In this document: piece after piece, positions 17,634 to 22,429 of the stretch
Numbering within the stretch: position 1 is the stretch's first letter
How the letters are laid out: each line of letters opens with the position of its first letter
NCBI GenBank assembly: GCA_033178465.1
Contig: GCA_033178465.1_4726.5
Source of the DNA: a phage
Direction: 5' to 3' (one strand)
DNA: 32,613 nt
The notes under the pieces: generated by a model
Seen by the model: only the letters and a program-made list of their open reading frames with translations
The model's database searches: none
Told to the model about the DNA's origin: nothing
Made by a program: the position numbers and the translations under genes

Positions 17634-19699
17634 AAAACACCACCACAGCAGACTATCTGAAACTGATCGATACGATCCTTGAAGCTGATTACTATTACCA
17701 TGTTAAAGCGGAACCGAAATACACCGATGAAGAATACGATAACCTGGTGAAAACGATTCGGGAATACGAAGCACAGCATCCCGATCAGGTTTCACCTAAC
17801 AGCCCAACCCGTCGCGTAGGTACGCCGGTCGATGGTTTTGAGACTGTGAAGCATCCGTCTCCGATGATGTCTTTGGATAACCTGTTCAGTGAAGAAGAGT
17901 TGCGGAATTGGACGGAGTCCATCGCAAAAACCTTAGGGGTCGTAGAAGACACACTCGAGTATTTGATCGAACCCAAATACGACGGGTTAGCGATCGCGAT
18001 TCATTACGAGGACGGTTTGTTGCAACGTGCGGTAACTCGTGGGGACGGCGTTCAAGGTGAAGATGTTACGTCGAATATCCGTACGGTAATGGGCGTCTTA
18101 CCGCAATTGAAGATGGGAACATTAACACCGCAGAAAATCGAAGTTCGTGGTGAAGTGTTGATGCCACACTACGTCTTTGAATTCTTGAACAGAGAACTGA
18201 TTGCAAACAATGAAAAGCCGTATGTGAATCCACGTAATGCTGCGTCAGGTACGTTGCGACGTTTGGACCCACAAGCCGTTGCAAAATGCCGTTTGTTGTT
18301 CTGTCCTTACGATGTTTTCATGGATGGTGATGACGCTTACACGTTCGCAACTCAAGGTTCAAAAATGGGGGTTGTTGCCGCATTAGGATTAGGTCTGTAT
18401 AATGAGTCCCATACCGCCGTGGGGACAGAAGCGGTCATCACGGCGTATCGCGATATACTTACAGGACGCGAGCATCGCACGTTTGATATTGACGGTATGG
18501 TGATAAAACTGAATGATGTTGCAATGCAGGAGAAGCTCGGCGCAACGTCTCGTGCACCGCGTTGGGCACGTGCGTGGAAATTCCCAGCGCAAGAAAAAGC
18601 CACCCGTTTGCTTGATGTTGATTTTCAAGTCGGTCGAACCGGAAGCATCACACCTGTGGCTCGCGTCGAACCTGTGTTCGTCGGAGGTACAACGATAAGC
18701 AACATCACATTGCATAACGAAGCCGAAATAAAACGGTTAGGTGTGTGCATTGGTGATGATGTTGTTATCCGCCGCGCGGGTGACGTCATTCCTCAAATCG
18801 TGAGTGTGCGCCCTGGTGATGAAAGAAAAGAAATCATTTTCCCGACGAGTTGTCCGACCTGCGGTACCGCGTTAACGAAAAAGGAAGATGAGGCACGTTG
18901 GCGTTGTCCGGCAACCGCATCATGTCCAGATCAAGCGGTAGGACGACTGATTCACTGGGTGAGTCGTGATGTCATGGATATCGAAGGTGTCGGCGAACGC
19001 TTCCTGGAACAGGTCTACAACTGTGGGTTGGTGCAATCGGCGGTTGACCTCTATCTGTTAACTCGTGAGCAGGTTAGCCAACTGGATGGGTTTACGGATT
19101 ACAGCGCCTTCAAGGTGATCGATGCTATTCAGAAATCCAAAGAGACTACGCTAGCACGTTTCATTTACGGGTTAGGTATTCTTACGGTGGGTAAAAGCAC
19201 GGCACGCGATCTTGCTAACGCATTTAAGACGGTAGATAGCTTTTTAGCTGCTGATAAAGAAAGCTTACTTGCCGTTGAAGGTATCGGTGAGATCACAGCC
19301 GATCAGATCTTAACGTACATCTACGATAAAGCAAATCGTGGATATATCTTCGATCTGTTGTACGATGTCGGTGTAACGCCAGCTCCAGTTAAGGAACGCG
19401 ATATGAATCAGTTACCGTTATTAGATACACGGGTCGTTATCACGGGAAGTTTCAATAGCATCGATAGAAATCGGCTTGCCGCACGTTTAGCGAACATGGG
19501 AGGCACGATTACAAGCGGTGTGAGTAAAAACACAACGGTTGTTATCTGTGGAAGTAATCCCGGCAGTAAACTCGCGAAAGCTGAAGCGCTGGGGATTCCC
19601 GTTATCCAAGACTGGGATGCAACCGATAACGAAGAAGAAAGTATCAACATGTTGATTTCGATGATTGATAAAGTTAAGGAGAATAGAAAAGATGGGTAA
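17630..19699 (+). CDS. ligA: NAD-dependent DNA ligase
   Basis: Adenylation lysine motif in [16 protein letters not shown] (KxDG), Cys4 zinc finger CPTCG...[11 protein letters not shown]-terminal BRCT-like VVITGSF...VVICGSNPG; 689 aa. Confidence 0.93.
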
Positions 19700-20012
19700 A
19701 CGTTGGACGGATAAAGAAGATGAAGCGTTGCTGCTTATTCTTAGTACATCACCAAAAGCGAGCTATAAAGAAATAGCGCGTTGCATGGATCGGACGCCGT
19801 GTTCTATTCGCGCACGTTACCTCAAGTTGAGGAAACGACGAGGTGACCTACCTCCTCGCGGAGGAGTTTACACGCCAGAAGAAAGAACTCGGGTTGCTAT
19901 GCTTGCAAAGAAGCATAGCCTAAATGAAATCGCTGAAATAATGAATCGTAGCGTACACGCCATCCGGTGTTATTGTTTTCGAAACAAGATATCGCTTAAA
20001 GTAAGACGTTGA
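19692..20012 (+). CDS. Myb/SANT-like HTH repeat protein, array member 1
   Basis: Track ORF 19665 trimmed to the ATG at 19692, 10 nt after AAGGAG; [14 protein letters not shown]...[20 protein letters not shown] and [33 protein letters not shown] repeats. Confidence 0.6.
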
Positions 20013-20024
20013 TGGGGTGGCGCT

Positions 20025-20492
20025 ATGGTCAAGGACTGGACACCCGAAGAAGACGCGATATTGATTACTCTGTACCGAAACGGTATCCCGATGCAAGAGA
20101 TTGCGGCACGGCTTGACCGAACAGAAGGTTCGGTTCAAGGTCGAATTAACCGTAATCGCAAGCGCTGGAAACTCATGTCACGTCACCGCTATTGTTGTTT
20201 CGAAGAACGCGTGATGTTAGCCGATTATCTTAAGACACACAGCGTGAAAGAAGCCGCGGTAATGTTCAATCGTAGCGTGGATGCGATCGCTAAACTCTGC
20301 TACCGTTATGGCATTGTTGCATGCAAAGCGCAACGTCGAGAGATGATTTATCATCGAATACATACTCTTAGAAAAGAGAAGAAAACCTGGGAGAGAATAC
20401 AGAATATCATCAATAACGAATTTAACACCCATTACACGTTAAGCGGTGTTCATAGCCTCTACTACACTCAAGCATTAAAACGCGTAGAATAG
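20025..20492 (+). CDS. Myb/SANT-like HTH repeat protein, array member 2
   Basis: DWTPEEDAILITLY...EIAARLDRTEGSVQGRI plus two further repeats. Confidence 0.6.
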   Translation: MVKDWTPEEDAILITLYRNGIPMQEIAARLDRTEGSVQGRINRNRKRWKLMSRHRYCCFEERVMLADYLKTHSVKEAAVMFNRSVDAIAKLCYRYGIVACKAQRREMIYHRIHTLRKEKKTWERIQNIINNEFNTHYTLSGVHSLYYTQALKRVE

Positions 20493-21009: not shown

Positions 21010-21487
21010 CGACGAGCTGAAAGACGTCACGCATCTGTACTTAAACACATCGATGACGATTGATGAAATCGCACAACGGACAGGACGAACACGCGCCAGC
21101 ATCGACGCGCGTCTGGGACGTTTGGGAATACGTCAACGCCAAAAGCATCGACCTTATACGGAAGAAGAACGCGCGTACATCAAGTCCGTAATCAAACAAA
21201 AATCGCTGCGTGAGATCGCGTACGATTTAAACCGTTCGTATGACTCGGTTCGTCAGTTTATACGGCTTAACGGAATTCGTCGTGCATTAACCAAGCAAGA
21301 ACGGGAAGCGATCATCGCGTTTATCGCGGAACGACTTAACGTTACCCAAAATTGGAATGTTATTACGTACGACGTTGTTGTTAAATTTGGGATTACAACG
21401 AATAAACATGCGTTGTATCAACGTTGGTGTTACTACACGAAAAACAAAGGAGCTGCCTATGCGCAAATACCGTCGCTGGACAGATGA
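20984..21487 (+). CDS. Myb/SANT-like HTH repeat protein, array member 4
   Basis: Overlaps member 3 by 26 nt; PWRDDELKDVTHLY...; YTEEERAYIKSVIKQKSLREIAYDLNRSYDSVRQ; C-terminal LYQRWCYYTKNKG. Confidence 0.6.
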   Translation: MGRSQPWRDDELKDVTHLYLNTSMTIDEIAQRTGRTRASIDARLGRLGIRQRQKHRPYTEEERAYIKSVIKQKSLREIAYDLNRSYDSVRQFIRLNGIRRALTKQEREAIIAFIAERLNVTQNWNVITYDVVVKFGITTNKHALYQRWCYYTKNKGAAYAQIPSLDR

Positions 21488-21989
21488 GGAACTCTCACGC
21501 CTCGAGAATTACGCGGACCAGATACCCAGACCACCGGTTAGTGAGCTGGCTACTGTATTTCAACGCACAGAAAGCGCAATTAAGAATAAGTTGTATATGT
21601 TGTTCCCTTCGATGAGAACCAATGAGGCATATACGGACAACGAGATTTCCTATATTCGTGACAATATCCATAGATACTCGGTTAAACAACTGTCAAATCA
21701 TCTTGGTCGATCGAGAGCGAGTGTCGCCTCCGTAATACGACGACTCAAGCTACGACGATACGATCCAGATGAATGGTGCAAAATTTCAGACCGTATTACA
21801 GCACTTCGACGTGAAGGAGTTAACTGGAGAGAAGTTGCTCGCATTATCAGCGTCGAGTTCAAACGGGAGTACCGTCACACACATCTTTGTCAGCGTTACT
21901 ATTATAACACACGTGGTAAGAAATGGCTGCAGGTAAAGAATACACAACAACCGAAATCGCATTCATACGCCGAAACGCGGGCGTCATGA
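21459..21989 (+). CDS. Myb/SANT-like HTH repeat protein, array member 5
   Basis: Track ORF 21357 trimmed to the ATG at 21459, 6 nt after AAAGGAG; RWTDEELSRLENY...; YTDNEISYIRDNIHRYSVKQLSNHLGRSRASV. Confidence 0.6.
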   Translation: MRKYRRWTDEELSRLENYADQIPRPPVSELATVFQRTESAIKNKLYMLFPSMRTNEAYTDNEISYIRDNIHRYSVKQLSNHLGRSRASVASVIRRLKLRRYDPDEWCKISDRITALRREGVNWREVARIISVEFKREYRHTHLCQRYYYNTRGKKWLQVKNTQQPKSHSYAETRAS

Positions 21990-22429
21990 CATCGAAAGAA
22001 ATAGGTGAAGCGTTAGGACGGAGTCAGAGAGCAATTAGCGCGATTGCTTCAATGCTTAACATTAAACTGAGTCATCGTAATCGGAACGATATCTTATCGC
22101 GGGTTGTCCATTTACGTGATGGCGAGAACCGTCGGTGGCGGGAGATCATTACCATCATTCAGGATGAGTTTGACGTCACGTATTCCGAATCGGGACTACA
22201 GCGTGGATATCAACGTGTGAAGCTCACGACGATAAAGAACACCGATCCTACTCGTCTTCGTATGTTAAATGAAATCCATCGTTATCGGCAATACGATAAA
22301 CTTCCATGGAAAGAGGTGCAAAAACGTATCGAGGTACGTTACAACAAACATTATCAAATCACAACACTTTGTCAAATGTACCGACGTCATCGTAATCGAC
22401 TGTTAGGTAATGAGGGAATTTTAGCATGA
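21923..22429 (+). CDS. Myb/SANT-like HTH repeat protein, array member 6
   Basis: YTTTEIAFIRRNAGVMTSKEIGEALGRSQRAISAI repeat starts at the N-terminus, so the 21923 start (67-nt overlap) is preferred over the ATG at 21986. Confidence 0.5.
   Translation: MAAGKEYTTTEIAFIRRNAGVMTSKEIGEALGRSQRAISAIASMLNIKLSHRNRNDILSRVVHLRDGENRRWREIITIIQDEFDVTYSESGLQRGYQRVKLTTIKNTDPTRLRMLNEIHRYRQYDKLPWKEVQKRIEVRYNKHYQITTLCQMYRRHRNRLLGNEGILA

Follow-up and report, generated by a model that had tools for sequence, protein, structure and literature searches.

The D5 protein of bacteriophage T5 is said to have been described in 1979 as a general double-stranded DNA (dsDNA)-binding protein. The note in the T5 GenBank record and a secondary citation describe it as binding to DNA and being needed for replication and late transcription, and in the T5-like phage phiR2-01 a D5 homologue is among the most abundant particle-associated proteins detected by mass spectrometry (PMC8624392). 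Here we describe a tandem array of six paralogous genes, denoted m1 to m6, in a phage contig (GCA_033178465.1_4726.5; 32,613 nucleotides, the whole of which is hereafter called the window), whose products are built from the same type of helix-turn-helix (HTH) repeat as D5. The window is a close relative of Escherichia phage vB_EcoM_Goslar (96% nucleotide identity across the array), a nucleus-forming jumbo phage of Escherichia coli with a 237-kb genome that belongs to the Chimalliviridae, and m1 to m6 are, in this order, the orthologues of Goslar gp119 to gp114. All six products are labeled “hypothetical protein” in GenBank and five of the six in RefSeq, where gp119 is a “SANT/Myb domain-containing protein.” We put at about 0.5 the probability that the six are multi-HTH, dsDNA-binding, D5-like proteins that act on the phage DNA and regulate the timing of transcription, replication or both, each through recognition helices of its own.

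The six-gene array and its relationship to T5 D5

All six proteins match the profile of PHROG 323, annotated “transcriptional regulator, D5-like” (E 8e-10 to 3e-19). T5 D5 itself yields 1e-71 with this profile and consists of the same kind of repeat as the array proteins, of the type W/F-T-x-E-E, E-I-A and R-S/T/N followed by helix 3. A hidden Markov model (HMM) of a single module finds T5 D5 at 1e-9, and the HHalign comparison of the array family with D5 yields an E-value of 4e-5 and a probability of 71%, with only residues 134–237 of D5 aligned. The correspondence to D5 is not full-length, the matches covering positions ~92–270 of the 319 in the profile. The genomic position is similar as well: D5 (T5.118) directly follows the NAD ligase genes and overlaps ligB by 8 nt (L016 26539–28078), and m1 overlaps the stop codon of ligA by 8 nt. 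D5 differs in being a single 255-aa gene product with ~90 extra N-terminal residues and an isoelectric point (pI) of 6.3, whereas the array comprises six paralogues of 106–176 aa with a pI of ~10 and a distinct C-terminal module, C or C'.

A sequence-only reading of the window, made before any database search, had proposed six plus-strand open reading frames (ORFs) downstream of ligA, and these are indeed present at the coordinates given in Table 1; the peptides it quoted agree with the translations. That the ORFs are real genes is borne out by purifying selection. The ratio of nonsynonymous to synonymous substitution rates (dN/dS) is 0.05–0.35 for orthologues at 69–97% identity, comparable to the values of the neighboring ligase (0.07–0.10 for ligA) and acetyltransferase genes. 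Shine-Dalgarno (SD)-like motifs precede m1, m3, m4 and m5, in the last case AAAGGAG ahead of the ATG at 21459. The paralogy of the six genes, also part of that reading, holds: when Smith-Waterman scores were compared with 500 shuffles per pair, 13 of the 15 pairs exceeded all shuffles (z = 6.4–37.7), and the members of the two weak pairs (m1-m6, z 2.3; m4-m6, z 3.2) are joined via m2 and m5. Alignment with MAFFT and HHalign resolves the proteins into the modules listed in Table 1, with the order A-B-C in m2–m5. Modules A and B are homologous (HHalign E 7e-8), and a weak relationship links C with C' (E 3e-5); HHalign detected no homology by sequence between A/B and C. The conserved tail of module C, described as YQRW followed by basic residues, is found in m3 and m4, but m5 has a variant form only. 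No further members were found elsewhere in the window or in the complete 237-kb Goslar genome.

The overlaps of m4, m5 and m6 with their upstream neighbors (26, 29 and 67 nt) had been taken as the trace of repeated duplication junctions. The arithmetic is right, but the second allelic form of the array (see below) has overlaps of 14, 38 and 4 nt, so that the overlaps are not a conserved duplication-junction signature; they look like ordinary translational coupling. For m6, the start at 21923 chosen in the sequence-only reading (168 aa) is preferred over the one annotated for gp114 in GenBank (equivalent to 21986, 147 aa), because the segment 21914–21973, which is read in two frames (m5 and m6), is 97% invariant among six sequences, compared to 74% for the array, because the resulting 21-residue N-terminal extension completes module B, because residues 9–17 form helix 1 of a three-helix bundle in the AlphaFold model (predicted local distance difference test, pLDDT, ~84), and because the m6 start of the second allele also lies upstream of the equivalent of this helix. 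The GenBank start of gp114 is wrong and the upstream start is right.

In the AlphaFold2 models of m3 (pLDDT 84) and m6 (pLDDT 82), nine helices are predicted to form three separate three-helix bundles, with the HTH made up of helices 2 and 3 as in Myb/SANT domains. The predicted template modeling score (pTM) is ~0.5 in both models and, combined with the high pLDDT, suggests a flexible, beads-on-a-string arrangement. The six proteins have pI values of 9.8–10.4, and the neighboring enzymes 5.1–5.5. The HTH signature of the Myb/SANT or sigma region 4 type that had been recognized by eye is in part supported by the predicted bundles and by Pfam scores above the gathering thresholds in m1–m4, but not in m5 and m6, which fall below them, nor in the tryptophans typical of Myb. 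Specifically, the Pfam Myb models (PF00249 / PF13921) score 34 bits in m1 (gathering threshold 24.4) and 28.3 bits in module C of m3 (22.9, Myb_DNA-bind_6) and remain below threshold in m2, m4, m5 and m6, and the sigma region 4 HTH (PF08281, Sigma70_r4_2) scores 27–34 bits in m2, m3 and m4, marginally above its threshold of 25.7. The three regularly spaced tryptophans of Myb repeats are absent: the first W alone is conserved, and only in A modules, and the B modules have Y or F at this position and I or L at the later ones. In this respect, and in being viral, with most modules below the Pfam thresholds, the array proteins differ from eukaryotic Myb/SANT proteins (c-Myb R1R2R3, SNAPc4, Reb1, Cdc5/Cef1). 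Membership in the sigma-70 family of sigma factors was rejected, given that the six proteins are too short, have no match to Pfam sigma region 2 or region 3 and no full-length match, and score 16–20 bits with the NCBIfam sigma models, the cutoffs of which are 43–323.

Two further groups of described proteins resemble the individual modules. GcrA of Caulobacter provides the best structural match of the HTH module, in its N-terminal DNA-binding domain. GcrA is a methylation-sensitive DNA binder with a C-terminal sigma70-interacting domain. Beyond its N-terminal part nothing in it corresponds to the array proteins, in which the modules are tandemly repeated, and the sequence matches are not significant (5YIU, E 0.26; Pfam GcrA on m2, E 0.067, 14 bits vs. 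a threshold of 26.9, profile positions 2–42 of 155 only). The best natural profile match in the PDB is Cbp2 (2LVS; 9e-10 across modules A and B, 4e-9 for the single-module profile), followed at some distance by c-Myb R1R2R3 (1e-4) and SNAPc4. Cbp1 (three HTH repeats) and Cbp2 (two) are archaeal CRISPR DNA repeat-binding proteins, i.e., basic proteins of ~100–150 aa made of homeodomain-like three-helix modules with basic linkers (PMC3597662), and the array proteins share this organization of two to three tandem modules. The NCBIfam model HTH_Cbp1 aligns over the three modules of m3, although its scores (19.7 and 16.3 bits) do not reach the equivalog cutoff of 140, and none of the six proteins is assigned to an NCBIfam family. 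The PADLOC models yielded chance-level partial matches only (E 1e-3 to 8e-3, 12–17 bits). Two other candidates were set aside: the PDB match 8VD6 (“CAP repeat”) was designed de novo and is biologically uninformative, and the Avs5 trigger JADA is unrelated.

The A/B repeat is common, and the short A-B-C architecture and the six-gene array are restricted to the Goslar lineage. A search with the sequence of m4 alone retrieved Goslar-like genomes only, and a search of IMG/VR added just one further genome; the complete E. coli RefSeq genomes gave no match. An exhaustive profile search, by contrast with the single-sequence search, returned 14,037 proteins with E<=1e-3, of which 134 reached E<=1e-30. 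The top matches are mostly unannotated bacterial or metagenomic proteins (e.g., P0034, which matches PHROG 323 at 5e-66, and P0076) that contain the same ~47-aa module but are single chains of 300–900 aa with 4–9 tandem A-B units and without module C; among the best 150 of the 14,037, proteins of ~150–180 aa with the A-B-C order are Goslar-like only. The 268-aa Myb proteins P0026–28, encoded on a 193-kb contig along with ArdA, LPD and YafQ, share single modules only and have an unrelated context. Among phages, Pantoea phage vB_PagM_AAM37 carries two adjacent, overlapping two-module genes, gp79 and gp80 (L030 3504–4146; HMM E 2e-15 and 6e-15), directly upstream of the holin and endolysin genes, a typical site of late-gene regulators, and in the Listeria phages B054 and B025 the relatives bear the annotation of D5-like regulator.

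Two forms of the m2–m5 cassette

Comparison of the Goslar-like loci (L001, i.e., Goslar itself, L003–L012 and L015) shows that the array exists in two versions. The second one (type II) was recovered by profile search in L011 and L015. The m2–m5 haplotypes are only 38–74% identical in amino acid sequence (Table 1), and they reside inside backbones that are 84–96% identical; compared to the type I proteins of L003, type II m3 and m4 are 57 and 42% identical, respectively. Outside ~6213–8100, L015 shows 89–100% nucleotide identity to L003. Within that segment, which spans m2–m5 and terminates inside the conserved m6 start, it is 44–76% identical to L003 and 95–100% identical to L011, save for one comparison interval over a 45-nt deletion in m5 of L015. 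L015 is thus the product of a clean en bloc exchange of ~1.9 kb, with an L003-type backbone, an L011-type cassette and clean breakpoints, and the cassette is therefore self-contained and exchangeable.

Between L003 and L011, the synonymous divergence (dS) is 0.25 for ligA and at least 2.9 or saturated for m2–m5, with dN/dS of 0.06–0.13 where it can be estimated. The combination of saturated dS and low dN/dS indicates that the haplotypes are ancient and under purifying selection, and recent rapid evolution of the alleles in situ can be rejected on the same grounds. The alleles diverge most in the loops and in the first helix of modules B and C (38–46% identity), and the predicted recognition helices (helix 3) are the least divergent parts (59–66%), so that a concentration of the differences in the recognition helices is refuted as well. 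Helix 3 is at the same time the element that sets the paralogues apart most clearly, its identity being 0.71–0.73 within orthogroups, even across types I and II, vs. 0.20–0.25 between paralogues. This pattern fits six proteins each of which keeps its own DNA target while the other surfaces co-evolve within the cassette.

Other parts of the array vary in different ways. The m1 protein consists of 106 aa (A-B) in the window and of 152 aa (A-B-C) in L003, L012 and L015, and the gene is absent in L011; module C of m1 has been lost in the lineage of the window. Apart from L011, which lacks m1, every lineage sampled has six genes in the same order, and the variation in copy number that the sequence-only reading had suggested looking for was not seen. 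The number is essentially fixed at six, and copy-number variation as the signature of an arms race was discarded. An additional gene, gp120 (708 bp, 235 aa; L001 6093–6800), separates ligA from the array in Goslar, L007 and L011 and is absent in the window, L003, L009, L010 and L015, i.e., it is a presence/absence polymorphism; it is not a seventh paralogue, as it resembles none of the six and matches neither Pfam nor PHROG profiles.

Two observations concern L015 alone. Its type II m5 (7591–8004) carries an in-frame deletion of 15 aa relative to L011 that removes part of helices 1–2 of module B, and this copy may be decaying. A local mosaic patch in the 3' part of ligA (L015 5419–5568; ~19430–19580 in the window) is 63% identical to L003 and 96% identical to L011, with the surrounding ligA 83–98% identical to both.

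The operon and its candidate borders

In the array part of the window, all genes are on the plus strand and tightly packed. The intergenic gaps contain a composite element in which a GC-rich hairpin runs straight into TTATG(C/T)(T/C)G, read on the coding strand, with the plus-strand TTATG sites at 839, 7212, 8810, 10861, 17294, 23415, 28499, 29572 and 30281; at an additional site, 2286, a 7-nt spacer separates the TTATG from the hairpin. Folding energies of the hairpins, calculated per 41 nt, are -15 to -25 kcal/mol (background, -6.0 +/- 3.6), TTATG is biased in strand across the window (49 vs. 17), and ~40 hairpin-TTATG sites are present in the Goslar genome. The elements at 17294 and 23415 delimit a unit that comprises a 94-aa gene, ligA, m1–m6, a GNAT acetyltransferase gene and a 142-aa gene (Table 1). 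In phage PhiKZ, the core of the late promoters of the non-virion RNA polymerase (nvRNAP) is TATG, with the G as the start site, and is necessary but not sufficient (PMC4666361). By analogy with this core, it is plausible that the hairpin-TTATG element is a candidate terminator-promoter junction for a phage polymerase. Scans of the sequence for sigma-70 promoters and intrinsic terminators gave counts at or below shuffle expectation.

Table 1. Features of the array operon in the window and amino acid identity of type II orthologues to the window proteins
Feature	Coordinates	Strand	Type II vs. window, identity	Remarks
Hairpin-TTATG element	17259..17301	+		GC-rich hairpin directly followed by TTATGCTG; 41-nt fold -24.7 kcal/mol; heads the array operon
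94-aa gene (Goslar gp122 orthologue)	17349..17633	+		First gene of the unit; 4-nt overlap with ligA start
ligA, NAD-dependent DNA ligase	17630..19699	+	86–87%	689 aa, LigA-type; 97.7% identical to Goslar gp121; orthologues with Pfam domains
m1 (gp119 orthologue)	19692..20012	+		106 aa, A-B; Pfam Myb_DNA-binding 3e-8; PHROG 323 3e-18
m2 (gp118)	20025..20492	+	71–74%	155 aa, A-B-C; Pfam Sigma70_r4_2 2.5e-8; PHROG 323 1e-17; first gene of swappable cassette
m3 (gp117)	20506..21009	+	52%	167 aa, A-B-C; GTG start
m4 (gp116)	20984..21487	+	38%	167 aa, A-B-C; 93 bits to m3; PHROG 323 3e-18; highest inter-allele divergence of the members
m5 (gp115)	21459..21989	+	45–48%	176 aa, A-B-C; PHROG 323 3e-19; last gene of swappable cassette
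m6 (gp114)	21923..22429	+	88–94%	168 aa with upstream start, B-C-C'; kept in all lineages at 88–96% amino acid identity
GNAT acetyltransferase	22426..22959	+	84–92%	Pfam Acetyltransf_1 1e-14; 4-nt overlap with m6
142-aa gene	22961..23389	+		Last gene of the unit; no Pfam match
Next hairpin-TTATG element	23395..23419	+		Fold -15.0 kcal/mol abutting TTATGCCG; candidate unit end and next start

The 142-aa gene is itself dimorphic, with 60–62% identity to L003, L007 and L015 and 95% to L011. Its haplotype assorts independently of the m2–m5 type, which represents further mosaicism in the operon. Upstream of ligA, by ~3 kb, several Goslar-like lineages encode a Dam-type methyltransferase (Pfam MethyltransfD12; L009 2546–3373, L004 2426–3250), which is intact (274–275 aa) in L004, L006, L009 and L010 and split in L003, L005, L007, L008 and L012. 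The corresponding site in the window (~16337–16657), Goslar and L011 is occupied by an unrelated 106-aa gene, and L015 has neither. Given that GcrA is the best structural match of the HTH module, the methyltransferase may be relevant to the array. Elsewhere in the window, the segment 5212–5559 (348 bp) contains no ORF of at least 50 aa starting with ATG or GTG in a crude map and yet looks like coding sequence; an RNA element, a frameshifted gene or one that begins at an atypical start codon could account for it.

Possible functions of the array and their significance

Each array protein is a string of two to three HTH bundles of three helices, independent of one another and connected through short basic linkers, the A and B modules resembling Myb and the GcrA DNA-binding domain and the C and C' modules resembling Myb. 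Under the hypothesis that the proteins are D5-like regulators, the third helices of successive modules would be placed in adjacent major grooves of dsDNA, as in c-Myb R2R3, Tc3, Pax and Cbp1/Cbp2, and given that each paralogue has recognition helices of its own, each presumably has its own target sequences. The six proteins would share a single phage-transcribed operon with the NAD-dependent ligase and, like T5 D5, would act on the phage's own DNA in transcription timing and/or replication. The paralogy, the coding status, the fold, the basic charge, the family membership at the level of PHROGs, the operon context and the allelic cassette with its recombination are established by the analysis, and we infer the binding to DNA, the choice of phage rather than host DNA as the target and the regulatory role. 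The array is retained under purifying selection in all sampled lineages, including L011, where m1 is missing.

Several observations weigh against this hypothesis. Only the HTH repeats connect the array with D5, the N-terminal ~90 residues of D5 having no counterpart in the array and the array proteins being basic where D5 is not, and SANT-type HTH bundles can also serve to bind protein or RNA. No D5-like gene was found within 4 kb of the homologous ligase gene in six other jumbo phages, namely Pectobacterium ParM-25, Ralstonia FLC4-11C, Erwinia RisingSun, Vibrio Aphrodite1, Pseudomonas Phabio and Klebsiella YC1, of which four are chimalliviruses. A general module consisting of a ligase followed by a D5-like protein is thereby rejected, and the synteny between the Goslar-like loci and T5 may be a coincidence. 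Since the array is missing from other chimalliviruses, it is not a core part of the transcription program of the family.

The existence of two ancient m2–m5 haplotypes, with saturated dS, in backbones as similar as those described above (ligA dS 0.25) raises the alternative that the cassette is of a compatibility or immunity type, a co-adapted set of regulators whose alleles would decide whether Goslar-like phages replicate together, shut each other out or persist in a carrier state, much as immunity regions diverge between lambdoid phages that are otherwise alike. The swap in L015, with its clean breakpoints, would be in line with such a role, as would the origin of the 60 known Goslar-like genomes, 59 of which were obtained from assemblies of bacterial isolates, i.e., from persistent infections. 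However, only two haplotypes have been seen, no operator-like sites were identified, and the proteins have no repressor-type dimerization domain; the recognition helices are the best conserved parts between alleles, contrary to what a change in DNA specificity would entail, and the en bloc exchange may merely reflect where flanking homology exists. We consider such a function unlikely.

The very high pI, the basic linkers and the flexible arrangement suggested by the models are all compatible with architectural, chromatin-like proteins that would coat or organize phage DNA with low specificity in the phage nucleus or during packaging, as are the abundance of the particle-associated D5 homologue in phiR2-01 (PMC8624392) and the reported general dsDNA binding of T5 D5. 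Nevertheless, six paralogues, each with a specific and conserved helix 3, exceed the needs of a non-specific coat, and a term search of the Goslar virion structure paper, which covers 28 proteins, found no mention of any of the six; we consider this alternative, too, an improbable one.

The sequence-only reading had favored a host-takeover or anti-defense module. In such a module, the proteins would bind host DNA or host or defense proteins and thereby shut down the host or counter its immunity. The array is a lineage-specific accessory locus at a variable junction, where gp120 comes and goes, m1 is long, short or absent and m2–m5 are dimorphic, and the alleles differ most in helix 1 and the loops, where contacts with other proteins could be made. 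On the other hand, there is no similarity to known defense or anti-defense families in NCBIfam or PADLOC, dN/dS is low in every comparison, the haplotypes are ancient, the copy number is nearly fixed, and the closest characterized relative, T5 D5, acts in phage replication and transcription according to its GenBank note. No positive evidence for this proposal was found, and we regard it as quite unlikely. Finally, domesticated or decaying DNA-binding remnants of homing endonucleases, selfish elements without a function for the phage, could be invoked on the basis of the secondary PHROG matches of m3 and m4 to “HNH endonuclease” families via the HTH (E 1e-5 to 2e-9), of several structural neighbors in BFVD that are endonucleases with N-terminal HTH arrays and of the intron-encoded HNH and NUMOD1 endonucleases present elsewhere in Goslar, but this is hardly credible for six genes that are under purifying selection at a fixed location in all lineages, contain no nuclease domain or remnant of one and yield a family HMM without a match in the Goslar HNH genes.

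At the level of domains and families, the affiliation of these proteins is already known, from PHROG 323 and from the Myb/SANT and sigma region 4 annotations in RefSeq and NCBI. What is new is that all six form one D5-like family with an A-B-C architecture confined to this lineage. The ancient, recombining m2–m5 haplotypes and the corrected start of m6 are new as well, as is the array as a candidate set of DNA-binding regulators in a nucleus-forming phage. A search of a 2025 review of chimalliviruses found no mention of a DNA-binding transcription factor. The most far-reaching version of the D5-like hypothesis, which we advance as a long shot, is that the array is the first dedicated set of sequence-specific DNA-binding regulators of a nucleus-forming phage, whereby the six paralogues would direct phage RNA polymerases to subsets of TATG-type promoters inside the phage nucleus and the m2–m5 haplotypes would be compatibility types for co-infection or persistence. 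If so, the array would supply the “other determinants” beyond TATG noted in the work on PhiKZ.

Being lineage-specific, the array cannot explain the biology of chimalliviruses in general. For the Goslar lineage, six “hypothetical proteins” gain the label of D5-like multi-HTH proteins, and the GenBank start of gp114 is corrected. The m2–m5 cassette marks a recombination hotspot in a phage lineage that is found almost only as persistent infections, and its type I and type II forms offer a natural experiment on function. With Goslar being the E. coli model chimallivirus, the array is a tractable candidate for the regulators or organizers of DNA in the phage nucleus.

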